64,000 nt of DNA from Verrucomicrobiales bacterium (lineage in GTDB: Bacteria > Verrucomicrobiota > Verrucomicrobiia > Limisphaerales > SXTU01), in contig SXTU01000291.1 in NCBI GenBank assembly GCA_005791875.1, positions 4,138 to 68,137 of the forward strand, written 5' to 3'. How positions within the stretch are numbered: the first letter of the stretch is position 1; every line of letters starts with the position of its first letter. A program made the translations under genes and the position numbers. Below, piece after piece: positions 7,242 to 49,685 of this stretch. A model generated the notes under the pieces. It was not told where the DNA came from, searched no databases, and saw only the letters and a list, made by a program, of their open reading frames with translations.

Positions 7242-8271
7242 AAATGGGCAGGAACCGGTAGTTCAACGCCAGCGACAGCAGCGACGCCGCCGTGCCGAAG
7301 GAATTTCCAAACGACCCGTCCCAACTCCCGTCCTTGTTCTGCGTGGCGGCGAGGGACTTGATGTTCGCGCCGTTCCACTTGCGCCACGCGTCCGGCGAGC
7401 TGTGGAAGTAAGCCTGCGCCGCGTAGTAGAGGTAGTATTGCTGGTAGTGCGCGTCGCCAGCGGCGGTCTGGAGATACTGCCACGCGCCCTTGAACTCCGC
7501 CGTGTCCTTCCGTTTCGCCAGCGCCTGGACGAGCACGCCGATGGCGCACCGCGTCGCGTTCGGCCCGCTCGCGCCGGTGTAGCCGTAACCGCCCTCGGGA
7601 GTTTTGCAGCTCGTGAAATACTTGAGGCCCTTCTGAATCGCATCCTCCGGCACCGCGAGGCCCGCGTTGCGCGCGGCGAACATCGCGACCATCTGCGCGC
7701 CACTCACGGTCGTGTCCGCGTCCGAGCTTTCCGGCGAGTAGCGCCAGCCGCCGTGTGGGTTGCGCGCCTGCGAGGCGACGATGAGGTTGATGGCGCGCTG
7801 GAGCGCCGGGCCGAGCCGGGCGTCCTCCACCGCACCGTAGGCTTCTGCTAGCGCGAGGGCACCGAAGCCGTGGTTATACATCGAGGTGCCGATGTAGCCG
7901 GTGTCCTTGTTCTGCTGCGCGAGCAGGGCGTTCAGCCCGCGTTTGATGGCCGACGCGTAAGGGCCCACGTTCGGGTCGTCGCCGTGCGCGAGCATCGCCA
8001 CCACGCACAGGCCGATGACGCCCGGCTGCCGCCCATACACATCCGCCCACGCGCCCTCCGCCGACTGCGACTTGATGAGATACTGCAAGCCCTTCACATA
8101 CATCACGTCAATCGCCGCCGGGCTGGCGTCGGACTTCTCGATGAAGAGCTGTTGGGCGGAGGCTTCGCAGAATGACCAAGGCCCAATGACCAAGGCCCAA
8201 AGAATAACCAATGACCGGAGCGCGGCGTTCACGCTGCAGAAGGTTCCGATCAGCAAAAGGCGCAAGGACAT
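7231..8271 (-). CDS. Prenyltransferase/squalene-oxidase-repeat (alpha/alpha-toroid) family protein, secreted
   Basis: I prefer ATG 8271 (MSLRLLLIG...). The track start, GTG 8334, overlaps the upstream stop as GTGA. Repeated motifs AEGAWAD, PHGGWRY, PEGGYGY and KDGSWDGSFG occur at roughly regular spacing, as in terpenoid-cyclase-like repeats. Confidence 0.65.
   Translation of the reverse strand: MSLRLLLIGTFCSVNAALRSLVILWALVIGPWSFCEASAQQLFIEKSDASPAAIDVMYVKGLQYLIKSQSAEGAWADVYGRQPGVIGLCVVAMLAHGDDPNVGPYASAIKRGLNALLAQQNKDTGYIGTSMYNHGFGALALAEAYGAVEDARLGPALQRAINLIVASQARNPHGGWRYSPESSDADTTVSGAQMVAMFAARNAGLAVPEDAIQKGLKYFTSCKTPEGGYGYTGASGPNATRCAIGVLVQALAKRKDTAEFKGAWQYLQTAAGDAHYQQYYLYYAAQAYFHSSPDAWRKWNGANIKSLAATQNKDGSWDGSFGNSFGTAASLLSLALNYRFLPIYER
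8171..8219. repeat. Single (unpaired) arm of CAATGAC-type heptads inside a CDS
   Basis: aatgacc aaggccc aatgacc aaggccc aaagaat aaccaat gaccgga. It translates as LVILWALVIGPWS within the signal-peptide region of the 7231..8271 gene. Confidence 0.8.
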
Positions 8272-8330
8272 ATTCAGACAGCCGGACGTTGCTGCGGCCT
8301 GAAGGCCGCGCTCCACTGACGCCTTCGCGC

Positions 8331-11300
8331 TCACGGCTTCGCCTCCACGGCCTTGAAGAAGTTCTCCAGCGCCTCGCGGAACTCCGCCGGCACCTGCCGC
8401 GTCACGCCGCTGCCTTTGCCGGTGCGGCGCGCCGCCGCCTCGGCTCCACGCGCGTCGCCAACCGTGCCCGCGCTGGCCTTGTCGGTGTTGCCGCCGTTTT
8501 GATTCGGACCGCCGGGCTGCTGGCCGGGCTTCATGCCGATTTGCGCCTCCTGCTGCGCCATCTGCATCATCATCTCGGCCTCCGCCTGCGCCTGCTGCTG
8601 TTGCTGGCCGTCCTTGGGCTTCTGCCGCTTGGCCTGCTCGTTGATGAGATTGATGAGGTCGGTCAAGTTCAGCAGCGCGTCGTTCTCCGGCTTCTGCGCG
8701 GGATCACCGGTGAGCTTGTCGAAGAGAGCTGACTCCGCGTCGCGCATGCCGTCCTGCGTGTTGAGCAAGAACTCCTTCGCCTCCTCGATGTCGTTGCTCA
8801 TCTGCAATTTGGTCAGGTCGCCGCGCAGCGCACGCTGTTGCTCCCCGACCTTCAGCGCCCCTTCGGCGTAGCGGGGGTTCTGCGCCTTCTCCTCTTCGAG
8901 CAGCATCGTCTGCTGCAACACCCGCATCTCGCCCCCGCGCAGCCGGATCGCCGCCATCAACATCTTGAGCAACTTGTCCTCCTTCGGCTGGCCCTCGCCT
9001 TCGCCTCCGCCGCTTTCCTCCTCCGGCGGCTCCAGCTTCTTCGACCAGCCGGCAAAGCGCTTCGTCCAAGTCGCGAGGTTGCCCATTGCGTCCATCGAGA
9101 TGTTCGCGTCAATCAGCCCGCGCACGCGGTCGAGCTCGTTGGGCGTGTTGACCTCCTTCATCTCCTTGGCGACCTCGCCGTAGTTCGCGCGCTGTGTGCG
9201 GTCGAAGAACCGGCTCATCTCCGCCACGACCTTCTCCGCCTCCACCTTCACGCCGCCTTGGTCGCCGGCCAGCGACGTGTTGATTTTCTTGTAACGCTCC
9301 GGCAGCTCGCTCGGCAGCAGGCCGATGGTCTCGCCCACCACCTTGCCGAGCTGCTCGCCCAGGCCCTTCTCCGACTCCGAAAGTTTCTTCAGCCGCTGTG
9401 ACAGCGTGAGCGCCTGCAAGTTGTCGAGGCCGTCGTTCATCTTCTTCTGGAGCGCCTGCAATTTCTCCAGCGCCTTCTCCTCCGCCTCAAGCGCCTTGGT
9501 CGCCTCGTCCGCGCGGTCCTTTGCCTCGCTGCTCTCCTGCGCTTTTTGGAGCGCTTGCTGCGCGTCCTTCATGTCCCCCTTCGCAAGCGACTTCATCTGC
9601 GCAAGGTTCTGCGTCCACTCGCGGAGCGTCTGCTGCGTGAGCGTCGGGTTGCGCATCGCCTCGCGCACGATGTCCTGACCCTGCTCCGCGATGCGGTCGA
9701 GTTGCGCGGCGTTGCGCGCCTGCTCGTCGGCCTGCTCGCCGGCCTTCTTCGCAGCCTCGTCGGACTTGAGCTTGTCCTCTGGCAATCCCATCAACTCGCG
9801 TGTCGCGGCGGTGATGGCTTCCTCCTTGCGCGTGACTTCCTCGACCTGTGCGAAGAGCGCGTCCAGCTGCTGCCGCACCAACTCTGCATGCTTGGAGAGG
9901 CTGACGATGTTGATGCGATGCGTGACTGACTCCGCCGGCTCGCGGCCCGGGAGGAAGTCCGTGGCCAGACCCTTCACCTCGACGACCGAGTCCGCCGGGA
10001 TGCGCATGACCGTGGGGCTGAACATGAACGTGTTCGTGAAGCGGCGCTCCTGCGCGCCCGTCGCCGACTTCCTGAACTGCGCAATCGCCGGCGTGTTCGT
10101 CGGGTCGAGCGACGCGACAATCTCGGAGGTGACTGCGCCTTCGCGCACGCCGAAGTCATCCGATGCGGAGAACCTCAGCGGCAGCACATCGGTCTCGAGA
10201 ATCGAAACCTCCATGCCGAGGTCGCCGAGGTCCACGCGTGGCGCGCCGTCCTTCATCGGGCGCAAGGCCAGCAGCCAAGGCGCGATGGGCTTCAGTCCGA
10301 ACTCATCCCGCCAATCGAACGTGGCCTGCGACGACGCGTCGAGCTTGAGCGAGCCACTATTGAACTTCTCGCCCGAGAGCAGCAGCGACACCGGCTCGGT
10401 CTTGTCCACCGTCACCTCCGCCGACGCAAGCGGGCGCGTGGCGGTGCCGGCCAGCGTGACGCGGCTGCCTTCGAGCACGGGCAACGTGGCGTTCTGCACG
10501 ACTTGGTTCGTCGCCGGGTATTGCAAGTAAGCCGGGAGTGCGACATTCGCCGCGAGCTGCTTGAGTGCGGGGCGGTGCAACGGCTTCACCGCGATGGTGT
10601 GCGTGGCGTCGCCGAGGCGGACGCGGAGCGAACCGTTCTGCGTCTGGCCGGGGATGGTGAGCTTGGCCGAGCCGTTCTTCACCGGCGCGGAAAGTTTGGA
10701 CTGCAACTCAAAGCGCCCGCTCGCGCTCGCGGGCTTCCAGAACGAGCGGTAAGTCACCTTGGCCACCAGCTCGAACGGCTCACCATGCGGCACGACGAGC
10801 TGCGCCGGCACGTTCTCGAGCGTGATGAACGTGTAGCGCGGAATGCCGGCGACCGGCACCGCCCAACGCTGAAGCGCGTTCCAACCCGCAGCTGGCGCGA
10901 CGGCGAACGCAAGCACCACCGGCACCAGCCCCGCCGCGAGCGCGATGCTCGCGAGCCGCGCGGGCCGGGAGTTCACCACCTCGAGGAAATCAAACTTCGC
11001 CGCGTCCGCCGAGACTTGCCGGATGGCCGCGCGGCAGAGCGCGAGCGACATGTTCTGCGGTCGCTGTTTCTCCTCCGCGAGTTCCACGATGCCCAGCAAC
11101 CGGTCGCCGAGCCGGCGATGCCCGTGCTGCACGACGTTCGACAACGCCCGCAAGTCGCGCCGCTGCCAAATCCAGCTCCGACACCACCGCACCGCAAACC
11201 ACGCCGCACCCGCGAGCCCCGCAAGCAACAGCGCCGTGCGCAGCGCCTTCGGCGTGTCCCCGACACGGTCGCACAGGAAGAGCAGCGCGAACGAAGCTGC

Positions 11301-11420
11301 CAGCGCCGCGACCCCGCCGGCCACCGCGTGCGTCGTCTCCGTCCGCCACAGCGCGCGCTCCAGCGCCGCGAACTGAGCGCGCAACGAGTCAGGCAGGGAG
11401 ATGCGGTTATCGGAGGCCAT
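8331..11420 (-). CDS. Large membrane protein with coiled-coil C-terminal half (DUF4175-like, unverified)
   Basis: 1029 aa from ATG 11420 (MASDNRISLPDS). It has three hydrophobic spans near the N-terminus, a beta-rich middle, and a ~450-aa Glu/Lys/Gln/Ala-rich region ending VPAEFREALENFFKAV. The track fuses it to the upstream gene as one 1285-aa ORF. Confidence 0.65.
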   Translation of the reverse strand: MASDNRISLPDSLRAQFAALERALWRTETTHAVAGGVAALAASFALLFLCDRVGDTPKALRTALLLAGLAGAAWFAVRWCRSWIWQRRDLRALSNVVQHGHRRLGDRLLGIVELAEEKQRPQNMSLALCRAAIRQVSADAAKFDFLEVVNSRPARLASIALAAGLVPVVLAFAVAPAAGWNALQRWAVPVAGIPRYTFITLENVPAQLVVPHGEPFELVAKVTYRSFWKPASASGRFELQSKLSAPVKNGSAKLTIPGQTQNGSLRVRLGDATHTIAVKPLHRPALKQLAANVALPAYLQYPATNQVVQNATLPVLEGSRVTLAGTATRPLASAEVTVDKTEPVSLLLSGEKFNSGSLKLDASSQATFDWRDEFGLKPIAPWLLALRPMKDGAPRVDLGDLGMEVSILETDVLPLRFSASDDFGVREGAVTSEIVASLDPTNTPAIAQFRKSATGAQERRFTNTFMFSPTVMRIPADSVVEVKGLATDFLPGREPAESVTHRINIVSLSKHAELVRQQLDALFAQVEEVTRKEEAITAATRELMGLPEDKLKSDEAAKKAGEQADEQARNAAQLDRIAEQGQDIVREAMRNPTLTQQTLREWTQNLAQMKSLAKGDMKDAQQALQKAQESSEAKDRADEATKALEAEEKALEKLQALQKKMNDGLDNLQALTLSQRLKKLSESEKGLGEQLGKVVGETIGLLPSELPERYKKINTSLAGDQGGVKVEAEKVVAEMSRFFDRTQRANYGEVAKEMKEVNTPNELDRVRGLIDANISMDAMGNLATWTKRFAGWSKKLEPPEEESGGGEGEGQPKEDKLLKMLMAAIRLRGGEMRVLQQTMLLEEEKAQNPRYAEGALKVGEQQRALRGDLTKLQMSNDIEEAKEFLLNTQDGMRDAESALFDKLTGDPAQKPENDALLNLTDLINLINEQAKRQKPKDGQQQQQAQAEAEMMMQMAQQEAQIGMKPGQQPGGPNQNGGNTDKASAGTVGDARGAEAAARRTGKGSGVTRQVPAEFREALENFFKAVEAKP

Positions 11421-11486
11421 TGGAATGTCTGACGGACTGTAACACCCGGTTGCTCCGTCACAATCCCCAAGTTCCCTGAGCCAGCG

Positions 11487-11590
11487 CCCGTGCCGGCGTG
11501 CTTCCAGCCGCCGTCTGCGGGCCACAGCAATTCGAGCGACGCTCAAGCACTCAACCCCCAACACGGCGGCTGGAAGCCGCCGGCACGGGC
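11487..11590. repeat. MITE-like unit with ~28-bp terminal inverted repeats carrying a mini-hairpin
   Basis: gcccgtgccggcgtgcttccagccgccgt ... acggcggctggaagccgccggcacgggc. It sits exactly between the DUF1501-like C-terminus and the next gene start. Confidence 0.85.
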
Positions 11591-12846
11591 CGCATCCCCA
11601 CAGCCCGCGCAGCTTCTCCTTCTCCGTCAGCCCCAGCGGGAATTTCTTCGCATGCGCGTGCGTGGCGATACCAGCGAACTCCCGCAATGCCTCGTGGATG
11701 TGCTCGGGGCGAATCTTCAGGCCCTTCTTCTTGTCCAGCGCAAGCGTCGCCGGGTTCAGGTTCACGCCGAACTGCTTCTCGTCCGTTGCGCCGATGACGC
11801 GGTTGCCCTTGATGCCGGGGGCGAGGAACATCACCGAGCCGATGGACCAGTAGTCTTTGCCGTTGCCCTTGTTGTAAGTCGGCGTGCGGCCCATCTCGCT
11901 CTGGATGACGATGACGAGCTTGTCCCGAATCTTCAGCGCCTCGGCCCGGCGGATGACGTAGGCGATGCCGGCGAGGAACTCGGGGATGAGCTTCATCTGG
12001 TCCACGTCGTTGTTCTGATGGCTGTCGAACTGGCCGATGCTCAGGTTCGCCGAGACGCAGACGCCGGCCTTGAACGACGCCAGCGCAATCTCCGCCTGCT
12101 GCGCGAGCCGCTCCTTGGGCACGTCCTTGGGAATGTGTGGCGTGACGCGCGCCATCGTCTTCGAGTTCACCTGCGCCGCGTAGAGCATGGACTCGGCGGC
12201 TCCGCAGCTCGCGCTGTTCCGCCAGCGCCTGCTCGATGCGCGTGAGCGCGAAGTCCTCGTGGTAGGGCGAGCGCAGGTTGCCCTCGATGTGGTCGGCGTT
12301 CGCGATTTTCTGGAGCGACGGCAGATACGGCACGCGCGACATCGCGACGACGTTGCCCGTGGCCGAGTAGTTGCCGAAGGTGAGGAACGAGAGCGGGCAG
12401 GTCGGCCCCTTCGCGGCGGCCACGAGCGCGGCGAAGGTCGGGTAGGCGAGGCTGTCGAGCTTGCCGGTGGCCATGTAGCGCGCGCCGGGCGCGTGGTTGT
12501 TCACCGAGTAGTCGAGGCCGTTGAACGTGAGCAGCTCGGAGCCGAACTCGGCGTAGAACTCCTCGTTGCTCATGCCGCCAGTCTTGTGCTTGTCCGTCGG
12601 CGCGAATTTGTCCGCGCCTTTCGTGAGGATGTCGCCCTCCTTGTAGAGGTGGTTCATCTCGTTGACGCCCTTGGGGTCAATCAAGTAGGTCGTGTCCCAG
12701 CCGCCCGAGGCGTTGAAGACGATGTAGAACAGCCCCTCGTAAGGAGGCTCCTCCTTCACCGCCGCGCGCAGCAGCGAGGTCATGCCACCGGGGCAGGCGA
12801 AGTCAAGGCCGGTGAGGGCGCAGAGTTTTAGGAAATCACGTCGCAT
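11591..12846 (-). pseudogene. DUF1501-like protein, disrupted by a +1 frame change and lacking its own stop
   Basis: It has a Tat-like start MRRDFLKLCALTG (ATG 12846). About 215 aa sit in one frame (FNASGGWDTTY ... SPYHEDFALTRIEQALAEQRELRS). The protein-like signal then moves to the frame of ORF 8331..12188 (YAAQVNSKTMARV ... QFDSHQNN ... SEMGRTPTYN), with the switch between about 12189 and 12215. Confidence 0.55.
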
Positions 12847-12979
12847 AAAAATCTGGCGTGATCGGCGTTGTTCCAAACGCTGGCCGTCAAGAAATACGCC
12901 GCCCGTTTCGGAGAATCAGAGGCTGGTCTGAGCAGGCACGCGGCTTGCCCGCAAGTGGCGGCGGGTGTAAAGAAGGTCC

Positions 12980-13120
12980 ATGCAAACAAGCATTGACCTC
13001 GACGAAGAGCTGCTTGACGAGGTGGCGAAGGCGGAAGGCCTGAACCTCAGGCCCACCCCGTCACGCTGCTGGCGGAGGCGAATCGGAAGCATGACCAATT
13101 ACCCAATGACCAATGAATGA
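12980..13120 (+). pseudogene. VapB-like (DUF2191-type) antitoxin fragment
   Basis: The 46-codon ORF MQTSIDLDEELLDEVAKAEGLN... matches the MxTxIDIDDELLxEA opening of VapB antitoxins. After about 22 aa it degenerates and runs into repeat A2. No toxin gene follows. Confidence 0.3.
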
Positions 13121-13247
13121 CCAATTGCCCAAGCCCAACCGGAGGGCGTCGTTGGGCGTTGACCTTGTGAAAACTCGTGGTTTTCGCATGGCCAGGGAGC
13201 ATTGGGCATTCTTTGGTCATTGAACATTGGGGACTGGTCATTCTCCC
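13091..13247. repeat. Heptad-word palindrome, CAATGAC-type words (copy A2)
   Basis: atgaccaattacccaatgaccaatgaatgaccaattgccc ... attgggcattctttggtcattgaacattggggactggtcattctccc. It ends 1 nt before the eda ATG. Confidence 0.85.
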
Positions 13248-14640: not shown

Positions 14641-14685
14641 GCGACGGGCGGAAGATTCCTGAACGCGCGGGCAGGGCTGCCCGCG

Positions 14686-26827: not shown

Positions 26828-26873
26828 CGTGCGAACTACAAGTCGGCTGCGTATTCGCTGCACCACCGTATCT

Positions 26874-39879: not shown

Positions 39880-39891
39880 AACGCGCTCCTC

Positions 39892-40017
39892 CTCCCTCTC
39901 CCTTCCTCGGAGGAGGGGAGAGGGTTGGGGTGAGGGGTTCTGTGCGTCGGCGCAAGTGGCCCCACCCCTCATCCGGCCTGCGGCCACCTTCTCCCCTCCT
40001 CCGAGGAAGGGAGAAGG
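39892..40017. repeat. Nested palindromic repeat (CTCCCTTCCTCGGAGGAGGGGAG core + GGGGTGAGGGG/CCCCACCCCTC)
   Basis: Two inverted copies of a core that is itself self-complementary. When translated it gives PSPxLRGxGE-type low-complexity peptide. It lies upstream of the signal core of the 36292..39879 gene. Confidence 0.8.
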
Positions 40018-40117
40018 CGCGTGGCGTGGCGTCTGGTTGGTAGCGAGGCTGGCAGTGGAGCGAAGTGATTTCATGGACTGGAAAATCTGGCAGGCGATGA
40101 AGTGAATGGGAACCCCG

Positions 40118-40762
40118 TCAGGAACCTTTGTTCGGCAGCTTCTCGAACTCCTGGAAAACATCCCGGCCGTCTTTCTTCGTCCCGGCCTTGGGACCGACGC
40201 CGGGGCCGAGCAACTCGGCGGCGGCCTTGGCTTTGCCGGGGCCTTCGGGCGTGGGGCTGTGCTTGATTTGCAACGCGGTCTCGAGGTTCTGCAACTTCGC
40301 CGCGTTGATGCCCGCGACGCCGTTGACCGCGCGGATGCTGCCGCCCGCACCGACGGTCCCACCACCGACATTGACCGCCGTGCCCTTCACGCCCACGACG
40401 GGCGGGGCCTTCGGCGGCGGGGGCGGAGGCGGAGGTTGCACGGGTGGTGGCGGCAGGACCGGCGCGCGGCCATCGGCCTTCACGCCGTTGATGGTGTCGA
40501 TGCCATCAATCTTGTTCACGCCCTGCGCCGCGTTCTTCGGCGGCGGCGTGACCGTCGGCTCGATGGGTTTCACCTTCGCGGCGGCTTCTTCCCTCACGCC
40601 TTTGACGGCGGAGACGGCGGCGGCGGGTGGTGGGGCTTTCTCTTGCGCGACGGCGAGGCCGGCCAGGCACAGGAGCACGGACGCCCACGTCCGCAGCACG
40701 CAGCGCGGACGTGGGCGTCCGTGCTCCTCGACTTGGGGTGAGTGAAACAAACTTGGATTCAT
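40118..40762 (-). CDS. Secreted proline-rich protein (hypothetical)
   Basis: The ATG at 40762 overlaps the upstream stop (ATGA). An alternative GTG at 40699 gives MLRTWASVLLCLAGLAVAQE. A PPPPVQPPPPPPPP tract follows. Confidence 0.5.
   Translation of the reverse strand: MNPSLFHSPQVEEHGRPRPRCVLRTWASVLLCLAGLAVAQEKAPPPAAAVSAVKGVREEAAAKVKPIEPTVTPPPKNAAQGVNKIDGIDTINGVKADGRAPVLPPPPVQPPPPPPPPKAPPVVGVKGTAVNVGGGTVGAGGSIRAVNGVAGINAAKLQNLETALQIKHSPTPEGPGKAKAAAELLGPGVGPKAGTKKDGRDVFQEFEKLPNKGS
40671..40728. promoter_or_regulatory. Perfect 24-bp stem / 10-nt loop hairpin across the start region of the Pro-rich gene
   Basis: aggagcacggacgcccacgtccgc, loop agcacgcagc, then gcggacgtgggcgtccgtgctcct. The in-frame GTG (40699-40697) is in the loop, and on the mRNA strand the 5' arm begins AGGAG. 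Confidence 0.6.
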
Positions 40763-41322
40763 TGCGTTTTGCGTTGGAGAGTCTTCTCAAACTCCGCCTC
40801 GACGCGCCGCTCGTATTGAGCCAGCGCCGCCGGGTCCTGGTGCTCGGCGAGGTAGCGGAAGATTTGCCGGGTGCGTTCGGCGAAGGGCCGCCATTCCTCC
40901 TCCGTCGCGCCGTTGGTCTTCAGCAGATACGTGGCGTAATAGTTCGCCTTGCCCAGTTGCTCGCGGATGGCGCGCGTGACCTTCGCGTCGTCGCCGTGAA
41001 CCTGCGCGGCTTCCTGGAGCAGCTCGTTCAAGTCGGTGATGGAGCCGACGACATCCAGCATCCCGAGCCGGGCCTTGGCCTTCGCGAGGCGAATCTGGTG
41101 GCGGACCAGCGGCGTCTCCTGCGCGGGTAACTCGGCGGTGAGCTTGTCGTATTCTTCGAGCACGCGTTCCCAATCCGGCTCCTTGGCCCGCTCCAGCTCG
41201 CGGATGGTCACGACGCGGGCGTGGGCCTTCTCGCGCGCGACTTGGACCTGCCCTTGATTGAAGTGGTAGTAGAGCACCGCCACTGGGAAGAGCAGCCAGA
41301 GCAGGGTGAAGAACTTTCTCAT
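40759..41322 (-). CDS. Membrane-anchored helical protein (hypothetical)
   Basis: ATG 41322 (MRKFFTLLWLLFPVAVLYYHF); 187 aa. There are 4-nt overlaps with both neighbouring genes. Confidence 0.6.
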   Translation of the reverse strand: MRKFFTLLWLLFPVAVLYYHFNQGQVQVAREKAHARVVTIRELERAKEPDWERVLEEYDKLTAELPAQETPLVRHQIRLAKAKARLGMLDVVGSITDLNELLQEAAQVHGDDAKVTRAIREQLGKANYYATYLLKTNGATEEEWRPFAERTRQIFRYLAEHQDPAALAQYERRVEAEFEKTLQRKTQ

Positions 41323-42332
41323 CGCGCGCCTGCCCTCGCTTCCTGCGGCTGCGGCTGGCTCGCGTCCTCGCGCTCGGGATGGCTCACGCGCCAATCGCTG
41401 CCGAAATATTCGAGCGCCACGGGAATCAACGCCAACACCGTCGCACCCAAGGCCATTGCCATGACTGCCAGCTCGGCGAGCGTGAAGCCCTTGCGCGGCG
41501 GGGCCATCGTGACGACGAGGTCGCCGAGCGCGGTGGTGGGCAGATGCTTCTCGTTCACATCGGTGTAAGTGCCCTGGAGCGCCGAGGCCACGGCGCGCAA
41601 GGTGTCGCCTTCCTGGCGCGATTGATGGCCGTCAATGAACGTGCCCTTCTGCGGGTTGCCCACGCCCAGCACGAAGACTTCCTTCACCGACTTGGGCCGG
41701 GGCGCGATGGGCGCGAGGCTCACGCAATCGCCGTCGGTGACGACGATGAGCCGCGTGCTGCCATCGGGGAAATCAGCGACCAGCTTGACCGCCTCGTTGA
41801 GGGCCTTGCCGAGGTCGGTCGGGCCGTCACGCATCGCGTAACTCAGCGGCAGACCGTTGAAGACATTGCGGACCAGCTCTGGGTCGCGCGCCTCCATGAC
41901 CACCGGCTGCGAATCCGTCCAGAAGCCGATGACGCCGAAGCGCAGGTTCCCACTCACGCGGTGGAGGATGCCCTCGACCACCTCGCGCACGCGCACGGCG
42001 CGCGTCTGCTTGCCCTCCGGTCCCGCATCGGTGAGGTGCATGCTGGGCGAGAGGTCCGCGACGAACACGAGCCGCGTGGCGTCCTTGTCCGCACCGGACT
42101 TGCGGTTGCCGCCCTCCTTCTCCGCGAGCTTGAGCAGGAACAACGTCACCAACCCCCAAGTGAAGGCCGCGAGCGCAAGCGACCGCAGCAACGGCACCCC
42201 GCGCGTCCAGCCATGCGGCTGGCCCGCCGGCCCGAACGCCAGTCGCCCCACCGCGCGGATGCGCCGCACGTGCAGCCACTCGGCGAGTGACGCAAGCAGC
42301 AGGACGGCCAGCGCGGCAAGCAGCGGCGTCAT
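41319..42332 (-). CDS. VWA domain membrane protein (BatB-like)
   Basis: ATG 42332 (MTPLLAALAVLLLASLAEW). MIDAS-like VFVADLSPSM, VVTDGD, and a C-terminal TM span. Confidence 0.75.
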   Translation of the reverse strand: MTPLLAALAVLLLASLAEWLHVRRIRAVGRLAFGPAGQPHGWTRGVPLLRSLALAAFTWGLVTLFLLKLAEKEGGNRKSGADKDATRLVFVADLSPSMHLTDAGPEGKQTRAVRVREVVEGILHRVSGNLRFGVIGFWTDSQPVVMEARDPELVRNVFNGLPLSYAMRDGPTDLGKALNEAVKLVADFPDGSTRLIVVTDGDCVSLAPIAPRPKSVKEVFVLGVGNPQKGTFIDGHQSRQEGDTLRAVASALQGTYTDVNEKHLPTTALGDLVVTMAPPRKGFTLAELAVMAMALGATVLALIPVALEYFGSDWRVSHPEREDASQPQPQEARAGAR

Positions 42333-42706
42333 GCGGGGAAAACGGTCGGGGCCATGCCGTTCACCGCGCACCACGGCGCGAGGCAAGACCGGGGCCGCCG
42401 TTGCGGGCAAGCCCTCGCGGTGTCAGGCAGCACAGGATAGTCATTCAATGGAGTCCGGGTTTTGGAATCGGCCGCGTGTTCTTGCTTCACCACCCCTCGA
42501 AAAAAAACGCTTTCACACTGGACGCGCCCCGCGTCTGGATTATTGAAAGTTTCCCGGTCAATTCCGCCCCGCGTCAAACTCGCCCGGCGCTCGGAACGGC
42601 TCGCCACATCTGGGCAGCTGCCTCCCGGGCGGGCCAAACCACAGGAAAACTTTGACACGCCCACGCCGTTTGACCAGCCTCGCCGCGAAATTCAACTGAC
42701 TACATT

Positions 42707-43558
42707 ATGAGATTCGGCATCAATTCCTTCCTCTACACCTCCCCGTTCACCACCGACAGCGTGAAGCTGTTCCCCAAGTTCAAGAAGTGGGGCTTCGACA
42801 CCGTCGAGATTCCGGTCGAGGCGCCGGAGCACATTGACCCGGCGAAGGTGAAGGCCGCCGCCGACAAGGCCGGCCTCGCCATTGGTTCCATCTGCGCCTG
42901 CATGGGCCCGGGCCGCGACTTCCGCGGCACGCCCGAAGAGCAGGCCACCGGCATGGCCTACTGCAAGGCGCTCGTGGATCAGGCCGCCATCATGGGCTGC
43001 CCACGCCTCATCGGCCCAATTTACTCCGTCGTAGGCAAGGCCGACGCTGTGGAGCCGGCGCAACAAAAGATCGAGTTCGCGCTCGTCGTGAAGAACTTGA
43101 AGGAACTCGCCGCCTACGCCGGCGCGAAGGGTGTGACGCTGTGCATCGAGCCGCTGAATCGCTTCGAGACCGACTTCCTCAACACCACCGACAAGGGCCT
43201 CGCGCTCATCAAGGCCGTCGGTGCCAAGAACGTCGTCCTGCACCTCGACACGTTCCACATGAACATCGAGGAGAAGAACCAAGCCGCCGCCATCCTCAAG
43301 GCGGGCAAGACGCTGGGCCACTTCCACGCCTGCGGCAGCGACCGCGGCACGCCCGGCGGCGACCACATTGACTGGAAGCCCATTGTTGCCGCACTCAAGA
43401 AGATCAACTACCAGGGCGACGTGGTCATCGAGAGCTTCACCACCGACGTGAAGGTCATCGCCCGCGCCGCCGCCATCTGGCGCAAGATCGAACCCAAGCG
43501 CGACGACATCGCCGTGAAGGGCCTCGCGAACCTTAAGCGCCTCTTCGGTAAGAAGTAG
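42707..43558 (+). CDS. Sugar phosphate isomerase/epimerase (xylose-isomerase-like TIM barrel)
   Basis: MRFGINSFLY...GFDTVEIP...CIEPLNRFETDFLNT...LHLDTFHMNIEE...VVIESF. Confidence 0.8.
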   Translation: MRFGINSFLYTSPFTTDSVKLFPKFKKWGFDTVEIPVEAPEHIDPAKVKAAADKAGLAIGSICACMGPGRDFRGTPEEQATGMAYCKALVDQAAIMGCPRLIGPIYSVVGKADAVEPAQQKIEFALVVKNLKELAAYAGAKGVTLCIEPLNRFETDFLNTTDKGLALIKAVGAKNVVLHLDTFHMNIEEKNQAAAILKAGKTLGHFHACGSDRGTPGGDHIDWKPIVAALKKINYQGDVVIESFTTDVKVIARAAAIWRKIEPKRDDIAVKGLANLKRLFGKK

Positions 43559-43649
43559 GCCGCGACGAAAGTCTTTTGCGCGAAAGCCGCTGGAATAGTC
43601 CGGCGGCTTTCCGCTTTCTATTCCCCACAGTCCAAAAGCGAGCGGCCGC

Positions 43650-44717
43650 TCACATCAGCTCCATCTGCACGCCACCCGGCCGACGAAATGCGGCCGTTGT
43701 AAGTGCCAGCGCCACGCGGTTCAGTCCGGCCTTGCGACATCCAACCTCGAAGAGCTTCTCAATCTGGTCCGCCCGCTGGCCGCTGCCGCGCATCCGCGTG
43801 CCGAACTCGGTGCTGTTCAAGTCGCCCTCCCGCACGGCGCGGATGCCGGCGAGCACCTTGTCCTTCCGCAGCGGGAAATGCTCCGTAAGCCATTGCTCGA
43901 ACAGCGCCTTGTTCTGCCACGGCAGCCGAAGCGTGACGTAGCCAGCGAACTGCGCGCCCGCGTCCGCCGCCGCGCCGAGCAGATTCGGCAGCTCGTGGTC
44001 ATTCAGGCCGGGAATCATCGGCGCGGTCAGCACGCCGACAGGGATGCCGGCGCGTGCGAGGGCGGCGATGGTCGCGAGCCGCGCGGCGGGCGGCGATGTG
44101 CGCGGCTCCATCACGCGGCGGAGTTCGGTGTCGAGCGTGGTGAGCGAGATGAAGACTACGACGGCGTTGTGCTGCGCGAGTTCCTGCAAGAGGTCAAGGT
44201 CCCGCGTGACGAGCCGGTTCTTGGTCACGATGGCGACCGGGTTGCGGAACTCCGCGAGCACCGCGAGACAGCGGCGCGTGAGTTCCAGCTTCCGCTCGAC
44301 GGGCTGATAGGAGTCCGTCACGCCGCTCATCGCGATGACTTGTGGCTCCCACTTCGACGACTCCAGCTCCGCGCGCAGCAGCTCCGGCGCACGTTCCTTC
44401 ACCATGATGCGCGTCTCGAAGTCGAGGCCGCTGGAGAAGCCGAGATACTCATGCGTGGGCCGCGCGTAGCAGTAGATGCAGCCGTGCTCGCAGCCGCGAT
44501 AGGGATTGAGGCTCGCGCGGAAGCCGATGTCCGGGCTGTCGTTCCAGGCGATGGCCGTCAGCGAATGGTCCGGGAGAAATTGCGTGCGCGGCAGCGGCTC
44601 CTCGGAGTCGTCGAACTCCTCGTCCTGCTCCCGCGCGGTGGCGACGAAGCGGTTCGTCGGCTGCGTGAGCGCGCCGCGAGCGGGGCTTGTGGAAGGGGTA
44701 TTCTGCCCCGTGTTCAT
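43650..44717 (-). CDS. Radical SAM protein (PA0069-type)
   Basis: NPYRGCEHGCIYCYARP (CxxxCxxC); 355 aa. The overall pattern matches the PA0069 / SPL-related family. Confidence 0.75.
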   Translation of the reverse strand: MNTGQNTPSTSPARGALTQPTNRFVATAREQDEEFDDSEEPLPRTQFLPDHSLTAIAWNDSPDIGFRASLNPYRGCEHGCIYCYARPTHEYLGFSSGLDFETRIMVKERAPELLRAELESSKWEPQVIAMSGVTDSYQPVERKLELTRRCLAVLAEFRNPVAIVTKNRLVTRDLDLLQELAQHNAVVVFISLTTLDTELRRVMEPRTSPPAARLATIAALARAGIPVGVLTAPMIPGLNDHELPNLLGAAADAGAQFAGYVTLRLPWQNKALFEQWLTEHFPLRKDKVLAGIRAVREGDLNSTEFGTRMRGSGQRADQIEKLFEVGCRKAGLNRVALALTTAAFRRPGGVQMELM

Positions 44718-44793
44718 GGAGGCCAGCGTTGCGGCGAGAGGAACTCGTGGCGAGTCGAATCAAGTGGAGGAGGCTGCAAACCCATGAGCCCGT

Positions 44794-44882
44794 GCGGCGG
44801 TTTGCAACCGCCGCCCGTGGGAGGCAGAAGTTCGAACCGGCCCCGAGCAGTCCACCTGAAACGCGGCGATTGCAAATCGCCG
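44794..44882. repeat. Two mini-hairpins of the GCGGCG-NTT-loop-AAN-CGCCGC type
   Basis: gcggcggtt-tgc-aaccgccgc (44794-44814) and gcggcgatt-gca-aatcgccg (44863-44882). The G>A change in one arm is matched by C>T in the other. Confidence 0.8.
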
Positions 44883-44925
44883 GCACAGGTTCGGCGCGCA
44901 ACCGCGGGACTCTGCCGCTACTAGG

Positions 44926-46437
44926 CTACTTCCCCGCCATCGCGGCCACGTAGTCGCTCAACGCTTCGAGATTCCGGTTGAACACTTCCCTGGCGAGAAA
45001 CTTGAAGCCGGTCGCGAACTTGGGCTGGCCGACGAGCTTCATCCCCTCGGTGGCGGTGCTCACCCAGCGGCCTTCACTGTCGAGGTCGCGGAGGATTTGG
45101 CGGACGTGAGCTTCGGTGGGGGCTTTGGGCTGCGGAGCTTTCGCCTTCCCCGACTCCGCGGCGGCGAGGGACTTCTCCAACTGCTCGATGTGCGCCTCGT
45201 GCTTCCAGCCGTAGTGCGCGGGGACGTTGCCGTCGTCGTGCGTGAGCTGGCAGTCGGCGGTCATGAAAAGCGGCTTGTTCGTCCGCAGCTCGTAGTAGCG
45301 GGCAAGGCGGCCGTCGGGGAGATGCGAGCGCTTGAGCCAGTCGAGCGCGCGCGGGATCGGCTCCAGATATTTCGCGTCGCCGGTGTCCCGGTGGACTTGC
45401 AGCAACGTCTCGATCGCGCCCTCGGATTCACGGCCAGCCAGCGCGGGCGACTCGAACTTGCGCGCCCAGATCGGCCGCATCTTGAAATCATATTGCTGCG
45501 CCCAGCCCGGCTGCGGCTCGGGCAACTGCGCGAGGAGGAGAAAATCCCCGAGCCGCGCGAGCGCCGTGCAGCAGCGCACGTCTTTGTAAATCGTCCAGCT
45601 GTCCTCCAGCGTGCGCGCGATGTCGGGGCAGAGAGCGTCGTTGAGCGTCGGCATGTCGTATTAGTTCTTGAGGCGGTTCTCCATGCGCCACTCATAGTCG
45701 GGGAAGCTGGCTTTCACCGTCGGATACTGCGGCGCGGGGCCGGTCCAGACCTGCGGGAACGCGCCGGTGGGATGCTGCGCGGCCACCACGGCCTTCCGCG
45801 CGAACTCGCTGGCCTCGTGAATCGCCGCGTGCTTGAACCCAAGCGCCTTGTCCGTGTGCATCAGGAAACTCAGCGCGCTCTGCGTGATGCCGGCGTCGAG
45901 CGTCGAGTAGTTGCGCCCGTGCGATTTCCCATCGCGATAGAGGCCGGCCTTCGCGCCGTGCGGGTCGAAGTCAATTACCTGCGCCCAGCCACCGGGCTGA
46001 AGTTGCCCGTAAACGAGCGCCTCGGCAGCGGCTTGCGCGGCGTCGAGGTAGAACTTGTCACCGGTTGCGGCGTGCGCTTTGAGGAAGGCCAGGCCGACGG
46101 CAGGTGTGCCGGAAGGCTGGATGAAGATTTGGTCTGCCGTTGCCTTGCCCTCGCCCCAGCGCTGGGTGAGATCGAGCGAGTGGTAATAGACGTAGCCGCC
46201 GTGCGACGCGGCCTTCGCGCGGAAGAACTCGGCGGCGCGCTTCATCCCTGTGGTCGCCTGATCGCGGAGCGACGGCTCGGCGGCGGGCGAGACGGATGGG
46301 AGGAGGAGAATCCACGCCGTAACGGGGACACTCCTGTCCCTGACGCGCGGCGCGAACCCGGCGAAGTCGCCAAAACAAAGGGGACAAGAGTGTCCCCTCC
46401 ACGACGGGTTCATGAACAGGGCAGCGCGCGACTTCAT
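44926..46437 (-). pseudogene. PL10-like (PelA/Pec_lyase-type alpha/alpha-toroid) polysaccharide lyase interrupted by one in-frame TAA
   Basis: The two track ORFs (45661..46671 and 44926..45654) are in the same frame, separated only by TAA (45663-45661) plus two codons: ...MENRLKN*YDMPTLND. GGWAQVIDFD and PGWAQQYDF repeats occur on either side. The family call is from memory. Confidence 0.5.
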
Positions 46438-46522
46438 GGCACCGAGTTCTCCGTCGGCCGCGCGAGCTGTCGAGCGTGCCTTTCCGGTTGACTCACCTGC
46501 GGCCTTCGCTTGTATTTCCGCC

Positions 46523-48130
46523 ATGCACAAACGCACGTTCCGCGCCCTCGTCACCTCACCACTTCGTTCCATCGCCACCGGTCTCGCGCTGCTGGCCGCC
46601 GCTCTCAGCCTTCGCGCGGAGGTCAAGCTGCCGACGATCTTCTCCGACCACATGGTGCTCCAGCAGGGCATCAGCGTGCCCGTCTGGGGCTGGGCGGATG
46701 ACGGCGAACTGGTCGTCGTTCACTACCGCGACCAAGTCGTGCAGACGCGCGCGAAGAACGGCAAGTGGCAGGTGAAGCTCGCGGCGATGAAGGCAGACTC
46801 GAAGCCCGCGAATCTCCTCGTGCTCGGCAGCAACCGCATCGAGTTGAAGAACGTCGTGGTCGGCGAGGTGTGGCTGGCGAGCGGGCAGTCGAACATGCAG
46901 TGGGCGCTGCGCCAGTCCGCGAACTGGCAGGCCGCCGCCGCCGCGTCAGCGAACCCAAACCTCCGCCTCTTCTACGTCCCGCGCGTGAAGTCGCCGCAGC
47001 CTGTCGCCGACATCCAGGGCCAATACAACAACGCCAAGCCCGTGTGGCTGGTCGCCAGCCCGGAGACGACGCCGGACTTCTCGGCGGTCGCTTATTACTT
47101 TGGGTGCGACTTGCAGAAGGCGCGCGGCGTGCCGGTGGGCATCATCCACACGAGCTGGGGCGGCTCGCCCGCCGAGGTCTGGATGAGCGAGCGCGTGCTG
47201 GCCGGAAACCCCGGTTACAAGAAGGATATTCTAGACAGCTATCAGGTCGGGATGAAGAACTTCGAGACAGCCAAGGCCCGCTTTCCCGAACAGCTCGCCA
47301 AGGCGAAGCAGTCCGGCGCGAAGGTGTTGCCCCAGGCCCCGCGCGAGCCGTGGAGGCCCACCGAGCTCTACAACTCAATGATCCATCCGCTCATCCCGTT
47401 CGCGATCAAGGGCGCGATCTGGTATCAGGGCGAGTCCAACGCGGGCCGCGCGTGGCAGTATCGCACGCTCTTCGCGGACATGATCCAGAACTGGCGGCAG
47501 GATTGGGGTCAGGGGAGTTTCACCTTCCTCACGGTGCAGCTCGCGCCGTTCACGAAAATTCTGCCTGAGCCGGCGGACAGCAACTGGGCCGAGCTGCGCG
47601 AGGCGCAAATCGTCGCGAGCAAGAACGTCGGCAACGCGGGGACCGTGGTCATCACGGACGTGGGCGAGGAGGCCGACATCCATCCGCAGAAGAAGGAGCC
47701 GGTCGGCGCACGGCTGGCGTTGCAGGCACGCAAGCTGGCGTATGGCGAGAGCATCGTCGCCAGCGGCCCGACGTTTAAGAACGTGAGCTTCAGCGCCGGC
47801 AAGGCGACCGTGACGTTCGCCGATGTGGGCAAGGGACTCGAAGCGCGCGACGGCGACCTGAAGGGATTTTCGATCTGCGGCGCGGACGGCAAGTTCGTCT
47901 GGGCCAGCGCGAAAATCGTCGGCGCGGACAAGGTCGAGTTGTCCAACTCCATGCCCAACTCCCTCGTGAAGCAACCGACGGCGGTGCGTTTCGGCTGGGC
48001 GAACTTCCCGGTGGTCAACCTCTGGAACAAGGACGGCCTGCCTGCGAACCCGTTCCGCACGGACAGCTTCCCGGTGACCACGATGCCGAAGCGCGCCGTC
48101 GCGGCGAAGGCGGACGCGCAGAAGAAGTAG
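46523..48130 (+). CDS. Sialate O-acetylesterase-like SGNH hydrolase (paralog 1)
   Basis: ATG 46523. The signal is followed by VKLPTIFSDHMVLQQG, then WLASGQSNMQWAL (GQSNM), WGGSPAEVW and IKGAIWYQGESN. Confidence 0.8.
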   Translation: MHKRTFRALVTSPLRSIATGLALLAAALSLRAEVKLPTIFSDHMVLQQGISVPVWGWADDGELVVVHYRDQVVQTRAKNGKWQVKLAAMKADSKPANLLVLGSNRIELKNVVVGEVWLASGQSNMQWALRQSANWQAAAAASANPNLRLFYVPRVKSPQPVADIQGQYNNAKPVWLVASPETTPDFSAVAYYFGCDLQKARGVPVGIIHTSWGGSPAEVWMSERVLAGNPGYKKDILDSYQVGMKNFETAKARFPEQLAKAKQSGAKVLPQAPREPWRPTELYNSMIHPLIPFAIKGAIWYQGESNAGRAWQYRTLFADMIQNWRQDWGQGSFTFLTVQLAPFTKILPEPADSNWAELREAQIVASKNVGNAGTVVITDVGEEADIHPQKKEPVGARLALQARKLAYGESIVASGPTFKNVSFSAGKATVTFADVGKGLEARDGDLKGFSICGADGKFVWASAKIVGADKVELSNSMPNSLVKQPTAVRFGWANFPVVNLWNKDGLPANPFRTDSFPVTTMPKRAVAAKADAQKK

Positions 48131-48185
48131 GCGCATCCGAGTTTTCCCTGAGCACGCCAGACACCGCGCGACGCGTCCGAACTCC

Positions 48186-49685
48186 ATGGTCACGACCATT
48201 CAGCCCGAACTCCGAAGTCGAGCTGCCCAGTGCCGTAGCGCAGACTTGCAGTCGGCAGGGCATCCGGCAATCAGCCACGTTCAGAAAGGTGCGTGGCGTC
48301 TGCGGGTTGAAAACCGGCGAAACAGCAGGCTGCAAGCCTGCGCTACCGGTGGCGTCAGGCTTTGGAGCGCGGGCTTGGCGCTGCTGTCGTTGGCCCTGCC
48401 TCTGGCCTTGTCCGCCGGCGAAATCCACGAGGCTGTCCTCGCGCACGACCTTGACCGCGTGAAGCAGTTGCTCCTGGAGCAGCCGGACTTGGTCAACGCC
48501 CGCACCGAGAAGGGCGACACGCCGCTCTACATCGCATCGTTCCGCGGCTACAAGCAGATGGTTCCGCTGCTTCTACAGTTTGGCGCGGACCCGAATCCCG
48601 CGCCCAATCTCCGCAACGAGACCCCGCTCTCCATCGCGCGCGAGCTGAACAAGAAGCTGACCGCCACGACGCTGCTGAAGGCCGGTGCCGTGGAGGACGA
48701 CCGCTCGCGCGGCGCGGAGATCCGTTACCTGACGCAGAAGCGGGAAACAGCGGCCTTGGGCGAGCGACTCCAGCAGTTTCCGAAGCTGATCAACGCCCGC
48801 AACGCATTCGGCCAGACGCCGCTGGCGCTCGCATTGTCCTCGGACTCGACGGACATAAACATCGTGCTCGCGCTGCTGAACCGGAACGCGGACCCGAACG
48901 CGACGAATCTGTTTGGCGGCACGCCTTACTCCATCGCGGTCGAGCGTGAGCAGGCACTCTTCGTTCCGCTCTTGGGCAAGCACGGCGGAAAGGAAAACGC
49001 CATGTCCCGCTCCGCGCCGTTGCGGATCGCCGCGCGCAAGAACCTGCTGCCGGAGGCCACGGAGCTTTTGAAGAAGAACCCCGCGATGGTGAACGAACCT
49101 GACGACTTGCGCCGCGCGCCGCTGCACTTCGCCTGCTTGCAGGGCGGCTTGCCGCTGGTCGAGGTGCTGCTCCAGCACGGGGCCGATGCGAACGCCCGTG
49201 ACTTCGCCGACAGCACGCCGCTCCACAACGCCGCCACCGCTGGCAAGGCGGACATCGTGGCGGCGCTGCTGGCGAAGAAGGCTGATCCGAACGCAGCCAA
49301 CCGCCAGCGTGCCACGCCGTTGATCCTCGCGGCGACGGCGGGATCGTTCCCCGCCGTCGAGGCTCTGCTGGGCGCAGGCGCGGACGTGAAGCTGTCTGAC
49401 AACGTGGGCGAGACCGCCCTGCACCGCGCCGCGACCGGCGGCCACCTCGCGGTGATGAAGCTGCTGCTGGACCGTGGCGTGGACTTGAATCTCCGCGACC
49501 GCCAGCGGCAGACGCCGTTGCACCAGGCCGCGCAGAATGGCCGCGTGGACGCGGTGAAGCTCCTGCTCTCGCGCAACGCGAACCTGGCCTACACGGATGT
49601 TTCCGGTTCCACCGCGCTCGCGCTGGCCGAGAAGCGCAAGCACGAGGAAATAGTGAAGCTCCTCCGCGCCGGGCCGGGCAAATAG
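48186..49685 (+). CDS. Ankyrin-repeat protein with signal-like N-terminal core
   Basis: At least 10 ANK repeats (GDTPLYIASFRGY..., RAPLHFACLQGGLPLVEVLLQHGADANA, etc.). The core is LWSAGLALLSLALPLALSA. The start is uncertain because ATG 48186 forces translation of the repeat at 48233-48349. In-frame TTGs lie at 48375 and 48390. Confidence 0.75.
   Translation: MVTTIQPELRSRAAQCRSADLQSAGHPAISHVQKGAWRLRVENRRNSRLQACATGGVRLWSAGLALLSLALPLALSAGEIHEAVLAHDLDRVKQLLLEQPDLVNARTEKGDTPLYIASFRGYKQMVPLLLQFGADPNPAPNLRNETPLSIARELNKKLTATTLLKAGAVEDDRSRGAEIRYLTQKRETAALGERLQQFPKLINARNAFGQTPLALALSSDSTDINIVLALLNRNADPNATNLFGGTPYSIAVEREQALFVPLLGKHGGKENAMSRSAPLRIAARKNLLPEATELLKKNPAMVNEPDDLRRAPLHFACLQGGLPLVEVLLQHGADANARDFADSTPLHNAATAGKADIVAALLAKKADPNAANRQRATPLILAATAGSFPAVEALLGAGADVKLSDNVGETALHRAATGGHLAVMKLLLDRGVDLNLRDRQRQTPLHQAAQNGRVDAVKLLLSRNANLAYTDVSGSTALALAEKRKHEEIVKLLRAGPGK
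48233..48349. repeat. MITE-like unit with CCGTAGCGCAG...CTGCGCTACCGG termini and mini-hairpins
   Basis: ccgtagcgcagacttgcagtcggc ... agcaggctgcaagcctgcgctaccgg. The inner mini-hairpin gcaggc-tgcaa-gcctgc is at 48325-48341. Confidence 0.8.

Follow-up and report, generated by a model that had tools for sequence, protein, structure and literature searches.

Palindromic repeat elements that probably persist in frame within signal-peptide coding regions of a Limisphaerales-like verrucomicrobium

Palindromic repeats lie at the start regions of several genes for exported proteins in a 64,000-nucleotide stretch of a Verrucomicrobiales contig (SXTU01000291.1 of assembly GCA_005791875.1, positions 4,138 to 68,137), referred to here as the window. 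Five such genes form the core of this analysis: a prenyltransferase-repeat gene (g1), a gene for a ~1195-aa protein (g2), and genes for a Pro-rich protein (g3), a PL10-like protein (g4), and an ankyrin protein (g5). Public gene calls and Pfam and NCBIfam matches agree with these earlier labels, identifying squalene-cyclase-like repeats in g1, a PL10-like pectate lyase in g4, and ankyrin repeats in g5, while g2 and g3 belong to no known family and both lie within a MoxR/DUF58/VWA operon. All five repeat arrangements are present as described in the original prediction, which was made from the sequence of the window. Its coordinates were confirmed except that the g5 element spans 48235–48346 (not 48233–48349) and the orthologous start of g4 is ATG 46413 (not ATG 46437). 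The GC content is 64–69% throughout the window and 66% as a metagenome-assembled genome (MAG); the sequence is Limisphaerales-like within the Verrucomicrobiota, and its nearest named relatives are MAGs of Limisphaerales and other Verrucomicrobiota. Five independent assemblies of one population match it at 99.6–100% identity (ENA ERZ27257034, ERZ27257035, and ERZ27257036; NCBI GCA_005773295.1 and GCA_005801925.1). The five repeat sites are identical across them, except for an 11-bp deletion in g4 (L084; L and P numbers are our handles for the sequences compared) and two single-nucleotide polymorphisms (SNPs) in the g2 palindrome. Because the repeats recur in five independent assemblies, an assembly artifact is excluded.

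A uniform inverted-repeat scan found 18 strong inverted repeats in the window, compared with 0–1 in each of five shuffles, and Tandem Repeats Finder added many heptad arrays, mostly as inverted pairs. As RNA, the repeats fold far better than shuffled sequence (z-scores of −2.0 to −11.3), with folding energies of −61 kcal/mol for the g3 hairpin and −96 kcal/mol for the g2 palindrome. The units resemble repetitive extragenic palindromic (REP) sequences, that is, short imperfect palindromes that pair up as inverted dimers and form one long hairpin. Their ends differ: the g5 element is bounded by GTAG...CTAC, the units of g1, g2, and g3 start with GGAGC, and the g4 element has no clear tag. One family, GGAGCGCGGC...GCCGC, has three copies in the window (8217–8314, 26801–26906, and 39804–39890) and occurs in at least six other loci, including L093, L129, L172, L176, and L178. 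Within the 64 kb, the g2 palindrome, the g3 hairpin, and the g4 element each occur once; for the g5 element, only a partial match was found, in L046. An arm of the GGAGCGCGGC type is read as GVNAAL in g1 and g2 and as RRERRAP at 26801–26906 and in L093; this comparison of arms in the window and L093 revealed no conserved element-encoded peptide or fixed frame per family. Direct repeats surround the extra DNA in g4 (6-bp CGTGGA) and g1 (5-bp CGTGA), as in the target-site duplication of a miniature inverted-repeat transposable element (MITE); the flanks in g2, g3, and g5 are too diverged to call one. We take the repeats to be short mobile palindromes, namely REP dimers or MITE-like units from several families that are unrelated to one another, together with palindromic heptad arrays. 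Among the genes called in the window there is no REP-associated tyrosine transposase (RAYT; Y1 transposase) gene. A role as a terminator, a promoter, or a regulatory RNA of the 5′ leader found no support, as an Rfam scan of the whole window gave 0 matches and no terminator-like or sigma-70-promoter-like site coincides with the g2–g5 elements in the scanned range 39700–48500.

Table 1. Genes and repeat elements of the window, with the start codon called for g1–g5 in the public assemblies. The n-region is the part of a signal peptide ahead of its hydrophobic core (h-region).
Feature	Position	Strand	Public start call	Remarks
909-aa gene, heptad palindrome after ancestral ATG 7241	7124–7207	−		+25 codons relative to L173
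g1, exported protein	7231–8334	−	GTG 8334	GTG 8334 overlaps upstream stop (GTGA); GGAGG 7 nt upstream
g1 heptad stretch, TTGGTCA-like	8171–8219	−		encodes h-region LVILWALVIGPWSF
g1 102-nt (34-codon) segment	8229–8335	−		bounded by direct repeats CGTGA at 8335–8331 and 8233–8229
g2, exported protein, 1195 aa as publicly called	36292–40074	−	GTG 39879	ATG 40074 is the orthologous start
g2 REP-type dimer GGAGCGCG...GCGGCGTGAACGCCGCGCTCC	39804–39890	−		last arm encodes CGVNAAL
g2 palindrome, dimer of two hairpin units	39892–40017	−		in frame within the pre-h-region
g3, Pro-rich exported protein	40118–40762	−	ATG 40762	ATG 40762 overlaps stop of upstream 187-aa gene (ATGA)
g3 perfect 24-bp hairpin, 10-nt loop with GTG 40699	40671–40728	−		accounts for +17 codons (51 nt)
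g4, N-terminal half of PL10-like gene	45661–46437	−	ATG 46437	TGA 45663–45661 splits the gene; orthologous start ATG 46413
g4 81-nt inverted-repeat element (46397–46317) with 6-bp CGTGGA flanks	46311–46403	−		+29 codons in frame
g5, exported ankyrin-repeat protein	48186–49685	+	TTG 48375	ATG 48186 (MVTTIQ) orthologous to starts of L092, L093, L094, and L091
g5 GTAG...CTAC-tagged REP dimer, 112 nt ("MITE-like unit")	48235–48346	+		in ancestral n-region after about codon 15
Ceramidase gene, 102-nt palindrome (34 codons)	55638–55739	−		between ancestral ATG 55786 (MTGLH...) and h-region

The starts called in the public assemblies are inconsistent: gene callers chose the ancestral start in g3 but began g2, g5, and the ceramidase gene downstream of it and g4 at an ATG that lies upstream in the same frame. 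Each gene was therefore compared with its relatives. In an analysis of AP-endonuclease synteny across 80 reference genomes, neighbors were not conserved, and orthologs were consequently sought gene by gene. The closest relative, L004 (Limisphaerales ASF_5), aligns in two segments at 84–90% DNA identity.

In g2, the arms of the palindrome (39894–39925 and 39986–40017) are 94% complementary and lie between ATG 40074 and ...VNAALLLTVCVLAAV; the REP-type dimer, whose last arm encodes VNAAL, follows directly. The closest ortholog, P0121 (93% identity), reads MKSILHRSLSCLSLTAIACLLALQPTHA followed by QQP. From ATG 40074, the window starts with MKSLRS (MKSLRSTASLA), where the ortholog has MKSILHRS, then takes in the palindrome and the REP dimer as extra codons and continues as LLLTVCVLAAVAPAHA followed by QQP. 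The resulting signal peptide has 105 aa in the window and 28 aa in P0121. Each of the two SNPs in the palindrome (L002) is synonymous in frame 0 and disrupts pairing in the stem, which lends weak support to a translated frame; an inversion or compensatory change is excluded as their origin, since they add two stem mismatches. Three other g2 orthologs are in frame and open from an MK[SF].. or MRPF.. start, L172 over 381 nt, L176 over 345 nt, and L178 in the same way, each with different or nested elements, and the gene caller used downstream starts in L172 and L176 and a second ATG in L178. A ~200-nt element occurs in these orthologs (L172 2120–2500, L176 2168–2512, and L178 1453–1800) and reads ESQRDSV..PRVAR..NPNGV..TPLGL..LGWRxQSRWD; the L176 and L178 copies differ by whole-codon indels (70 vs 73 residues).

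The g3 signal peptide is 39 residues long in the window and 22 in three orthologs, and the extra DNA is the hairpin, whose 3′ arm extends into the coding sequence of the h-region (RTWASVLL). The overlap of the g3 start with the upstream 187-aa gene (caATGAa) is kept in L171, L172, and L176. In L004, position 32316 is joined straight to 42643, and the 10 kb that includes the MoxR/DUF58/VWA operon with g2 and g3 is absent.

For g4, two hairpins had been predicted after the start. Both are present, as GGGGACA..TGTCCCC units (46324–46340 and 46380–46397) that together make up one 92-nt inverted repeat at 46315–46406, with one unit in each half, but the start that they follow is ATG 46413, in the same frame as ATG 46437. 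Orthologs begin MKAPLSWLLSL... (L094) and MNSLGFLLLAS... (L091), and the window reads MNPSW..ILLL where the latter has MNSLGFLLL. When the 81-nt element and one of the CGTGGA copies (46403–46398 and 46316–46311) are taken out of the window sequence, MNPSWILLLPSVSPA followed by AEP remains, which makes the insert 87 nt, or 29 codons. No ATG, GTG, or TTG occurs between the element and the h-region in the window allele. The PL10-like gene is one 439-aa open reading frame (ORF) in L084, which has TGC where the TGA of the window splits it into 258 + 242 aa.

Seven syntenic SASA-ankyrin loci were recovered for the comparison of g5. Orthologs without the element begin MLTTSQRLPS... (L092), M-TSRLQCLRAS... 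(L094), and MLTPRPAS... (L091) and run straight into ...LALPLALSA followed by GEIH. The window ATG 48186 (MVTTIQPELRS) shares the conserved context TCCCATG with them, and its MVTTIQ aligns with MLTTSQ, MLMSCQ, and M-TSRLQ. The extra DNA of the window, about 42 codons, is stop-free. A different, REP-type element is found at the same place in L093, in frame and open over 231 nt, with a new ATG right after it. The 499-aa ankyrin ORF has no exact database record because the public call starts at TTG 48375.

Two further genes have the same arrangement. In the 909-aa gene, L173 is without an element, and L170 has, at the same place, an element that differs from that of the window. The public call of the ceramidase gene begins at ATG 55633, immediately behind its 102-nt palindrome; for this gene the upstream start was predicted first, and orthologs (82–91% identity) that begin MTGLH or MNGLH...RGY... 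were found afterward. The window ATG 55786 (MTGLHLHRFGYT) matches these ortholog starts, and the 34 extra codons are the palindrome. In L181, the n-region codons of the ceramidase gene run in frame through the same palindrome family, and the ancestral ATG is now AGG.

The history of g1 is less clear. The mini-hairpin predicted after its GTGA-coupled start and the heptad arm predicted to encode part of the signal peptide are both there: the former, GCGGCCTTCAGGCCGC at 8294–8309, is the left REP unit of the inverted repeat 8217–8248/8283–8314, and the heptads at 8171–8219 encode RSLVILWALVIGPWSF. L170 lacks exactly the 102 nt of the segment, and L173 has the segment at the same length with a heavily diverged loop; L170 has a REP singlet where the window has a dimer. 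In L170, g1 begins at a GTG that overlaps the upstream stop and is homologous to window GTG 8232, and both GTG 8334 and GTG 8232 may be considered as start candidates. We had taken the GTGA start as "the ancestral start", a view we downgraded because L182 has the same GTGAGCGCGAA with a closed frame of 39 codons. Amino-acid-level selection was sought on the insert that g1 shares with L173, and none was found. From this comparison, at most the frame and openness of the insert would be constrained, and its sequence would not. The g1 h-region is conserved in orthologs of 82–91% identity. As it has the form of a heptad and is common to the orthologs, its derivation from a repeat is plausible. A heptad array gives the same 7-residue peptide repeat in any of the three frames; TTGGTCA in one orientation encodes LVIGHWS, which is hydrophobic and stop-free, while the other orientation contains TGA. 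TTGGTCA/AATGACC is the commonest heptad of the window (1290–1431, 13091–13243, 23498–23723, and 8171–8219), and we take its unit to be that of the cyanobacterial short tandemly repeated repetitive sequence STRR2.

In the alignments with orthologs that lack the repeats, the upstream ATG is the ancestral, conserved start in g2 (ATG 40074), g3 (ATG 40762), g4 (ATG 46413), and g5 (ATG 48186), and the insert is in frame without a stop. The inserts amount to whole codons throughout: +77 in g2, +17 in g3, +29 in g4, about +42 in g5, +25 in the 909-aa gene, and +34 in the ceramidase gene. The frame from the orthologous start is stop-free in 9/9 segments, and at least one other frame contains a stop in each. 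As g1–g5 had been chosen earlier partly for their open frame, we sought cases not chosen in this way. Seven fit (L172, L176, L178, L093, L170, the ceramidase gene, and L181) and two do not, so that 7/9 are in frame against 1/3 expected (p ~0.008, or ~0.045 with the g2 orthologs partly collapsed; hand calculation). Among these cases, L093, L170, L172, L176, L178, and L181 are independent lineages. Every extended n-region has a net positive charge. These alignments give good support for placing the inserts of g2–g5, of the 909-aa gene, and of the ceramidase gene inside the signal-peptide coding region of the ancestral genes. Translation of the inserts into long n-regions explains the data best, and we regard it as reasonably probable. 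REP-dimer and MITE-like elements thus probably survive in frame in signal-peptide n-regions and are translated. On this view, roughly half of the genes for exported proteins here seem to have unusually long signal-peptide leaders that derive from repeats. Of the two readings put forward in the original prediction, the long repeat-encoded n-region is favored by the repeat-free orthologs of g2–g5, and a start after the repeat retains a smaller share of the probability.

Several observations weigh against translation of the inserts. The two misfits are g1 of the more distant L182, in which the shared sequence after the stop is followed by a frame that closes after 39 codons, before the h-region, and g4 of L084, in which the 11-bp deletion (46348–46358, in the loop) disrupts the reading frame that begins at ATG 46413 and puts a TTG of the loop in frame. 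Each co-occurring allele of g4 carries a different lesion, and this gene may be decaying. For g1, either an insertion in the window or a deletion in L170 would fit. The g1 insert differs from that of L173 at the three codon positions in the ratio 10/9/10, compared with 8/9/55 in the mature part. The g2 orthologs share part of their history and are not fully independent. Plausible downstream starts exist for g1, g2, g3, and g5. Finally, stems of −45 to −96 kcal/mol lie 7–57 nt after the start, and such stems might hinder initiation or elongation.

The main rival explanation is a shift of the start codon. The elements would have landed after the old start, and translation would now begin inside or just after the element, which would then effectively be 5′ leader, with the old ATG left as a relic or opening a short upstream reading frame. 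Candidate new starts exist: GTG 8232 in g1, which is the start used in L170; GTG 39879 in g2, with the stretch GGAGGAGGAG upstream; GTG 39819 in g2, the choice of the gene caller in P0129; GTG 40699 in the loop of the g3 hairpin; and TTG 48375 in g5, with GGAG 7 nt upstream. The loop TTG that comes into frame in L084, the ancestral ATG that has become AGG in L181, the new ATG right after the insert in L093, and the lack of amino-acid constraint on the g1 insert are also in keeping with such a shift. However, it does not predict that the old start should be in frame and stop-free through 51–381 nt in nearly every case, including the unselected ones. The window allele of g4 has no canonical start after the element, and signal peptides that begin at the new starts would in several cases lack a charged n-region (MALLSLALPLALSA and MILFLSLIALPVTA). 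On balance, we consider a start-codon shift possible but rather doubtful.

High GC content raises another concern. Stops are rare at 66% GC (~2.4% of codons, calculated from composition), and ordinary extragenic REPs in 5′ leaders could appear to be coding simply because stop-poor ORFs run up to a chance ATG. The same families are indeed found in plain intergenic DNA by the SixA-like, aldolase, MTHFR, and LipA genes, and Di Nocera et al. (2013; PMC3733652) considered the REPs at ORF N-termini to be mostly extragenic. However, the upstream starts here are the conserved starts, and the first residues match those of repeat-free orthologs. In addition, g3 has no leader, as its start overlaps the upstream stop, and the same holds for g1 if GTG 8334 is used. 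These comparisons contradict an artifact for g2–g5, the 909-aa gene, and the ceramidase gene, and we consider it very improbable.

In these genes, the comparison with relatives places the elements within the signal-peptide coding sequence, only a few codons downstream of the original start and ahead of the hydrophobic core. If the inserts are translated as long n-regions, the following can be proposed. Copies would persist at this place only when they add whole codons and no stop. Translation would still begin at the old start, and the ribosome would read through the hairpin; in g3, and likewise in g1 if GTG 8334 is used, the old start would be translationally coupled to the upstream gene. The product would be a long, arginine-rich n-region with the h-region and cleavage site intact. 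On export, the extended n-region would be removed with the signal peptide, leaving the mature protein unchanged. The n-region may be the only stretch of coding sequence in which insertions of this kind carry little cost, and for that reason they would pile up at the starts of exported genes, with different elements at the same spot in different lineages.

To relate the elements to protein export, we sorted 51 genes by inspection of their N-termini into 18 with a cleavable signal peptide, 7 with an N-terminal membrane anchor, and 26 cytoplasmic. Within the window, an element lies near the start in 11/18 exported vs 6/27 cytoplasmic genes (Fisher p = 0.013). In the cytoplasmic genes (SixA-like, aldolase, MTHFR, and LipA), the elements lie ahead of the start, in most cases behind a stop. 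The 5.2 kb of non-coding DNA in the window holds ~13 elements, or 0.25 per 100 nt, while at least 7 inserts with support from orthologs fall in the 0.5–1 kb of ancestral n-region (six of them verified, with g1 added, for which insertion and deletion both fit). This is a density ~5–7 times that of the non-coding DNA (Poisson p = 5e-4 to 0.02). For a control across ~70 other genomes, we counted strong inverted repeats within 260 nt upstream of one exported and one cytoplasmic gene. The counts, 7/70 for the exported gene (SASA) vs 3/75 for the cytoplasmic gene (AP endonuclease), did not differ significantly, and 4/7 of the SASA-upstream repeats lie in true leaders behind stop codons. The earlier claim that repeats abut the starts of exported proteins more often than by chance thus holds within the window but gains no significant support from the cross-genome control.

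The density of elements could also indicate a selected function or targeting, in which hairpins are placed or kept in the early coding region of exported genes for an effect there. For example, they could slow early elongation and so aid Sec targeting, tune operon expression, or protect the mRNA of the upstream cistron. Apart from the density itself, some features agree with this: independent elements occupy the same n-region in g5 (window vs L093), in the 909-aa gene (window vs L170), and, nested, in g2, and the REP arms in g1 are conserved while the loop has diverged. However, close relatives do well without the inserts, the L002 SNPs weaken the stem, one insert-bearing gene (g4) is broken, and the cross-genome control revealed no significant excess. 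A simpler account of the same pattern is that inserts survive where the site tolerates them. A selected function therefore seems unlikely to us, and we find it equally hard to credit the more specific proposal of a mobile, modular "leader cassette", in which hairpins are targeted to or retained in n-regions as an RNA-level device for exported-protein genes.

In-frame intragenic palindromes are established in the form of the Rickettsia palindromic elements (RPEs; Ogata et al. 2000, as cited in PMC10969869), and some copies of enterobacterial repetitive intergenic consensus (ERIC) sequences or MITEs are also in-frame and intragenic (PMC10969869). The elements described here are like RPEs in being short palindromic mobile repeats in ORFs that add whole codons and no stop, with several families per genome. 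They differ in that they concentrate in the n-region of cleavable signal peptides and should be removed from the mature protein, whereas RPEs lie in the bodies of housekeeping proteins. Unlike in an RPE family, no conserved peptide or fixed frame was seen here. With REPs and REPINs, they share imperfect hairpin units of 20–40 nt, inverted dimers, singlet and dimer forms (in g1), and, for the GGAGCGCGGC family, dispersal in related genomes; the g5 element has GTAG...CTAC ends. However, classical REPs are extragenic and mostly 3′ of genes, and in contrast to the GTAG/CGTC-tagged REPs and REPINs, other families here have GGAGC heads or no recognized tag. Opitutus terrae, also a verrucomicrobium, had the most intragenic GTAG REPs in the survey of Di Nocera et al. 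(2013; PMC3733652), who judged most of the many REPs at ORF N-termini to be extragenic since shorter homologs exist. The same comparison gives the opposite result here, as the start of the homolog lies upstream of the repeat in the alignments.

Some features recall two other systems. Mycobacterial interspersed repetitive units (MIRUs) are intercistronic repeats with small ORFs that overlap the flanking stop and start, forming separate mini-ORFs in tandem units. The elements of g1 and g3 likewise sit at operon junctions with stop/start overlap (GTGA and ATGA) and keep the frame, which lets coupled translation continue; unlike a MIRU, the element here is fused to the signal peptide of the downstream gene. 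The extended signal peptide region (ESPR) of autotransporters demonstrates that Sec signal peptides with 25–60 extra N-terminal residues still work. The ESPR motif is conserved among proteins and acts in targeting kinetics, whereas the extensions here come from different repeats, are mutually unrelated, and share no motif. Considering these systems together, our finding would be a variant of the intragenic palindromes of the Rickettsia RPE type, with the signal-peptide location as the new part. No report of a signal-peptide niche for palindromes was found in the literature searched, although the search was limited and is not proof of absence. If the inserts are translated, signal-peptide n-regions would be a safe harbor for selfish palindromic DNA inside genes, and the RPE concept would come to include a phylum of free-living bacteria and a protein segment that is both defined and disposable. 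Given the inconsistent start calls, Verrucomicrobiota MAGs will carry systematic errors in their N-termini, signal-peptide predictions, and secretome estimates. The genes also provide a natural experiment on the possible length and structure of a Sec signal-peptide leader.

Other repeats of the window were noted in passing. In a rhombosortase gene, whose NCBIfam match begins at residue 75, a REP dimer of the GGAGCGCGGC family (26801–26906, in the RRERRAP frame) separates ATG 26929 from the first membrane helix. Two paralogous exported genes (1436–2854 and 2851–4527) have heptad arrays between the first ATG and the hydrophobic core, as read from the window sequence only; these arrays, at 2761–2845 and 4375–4404, read VLRVACCVLRAV... 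and ITNYLSVITNYF. In the body of the gene for a 991-aa exported protein, a GATTGCC heptad array (31682–31714) has 4.7 copies in 33 nt, or 11 codons. Inverted repeats at 55196–55241 and 59054–59134 that are apparently inside genes look like ordinary coding sequence and were set aside. A third apparently intragenic repeat, 11500–11577, coincides with the stop of a DUF1501 gene, which the gene caller had run together with the following one. The 1285-aa "DUF1501" protein of the public annotation (8331–12876) looks like a fusion artifact: a 441-aa ORF (11551–12876), likely the DUF1501 gene, ends within this REP-like hairpin, and a separate gene seems to begin beyond it near 11470 (MASDNRISL...). 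One arm of the hairpin has 6 clustered SNPs in assembly L088. Co-occurring strains also differ in their intergenic repeats, by the presence or absence of one AACACGC heptad and by 9-, 10-, and 21-bp indels (15674; 52629; 52755–52763).

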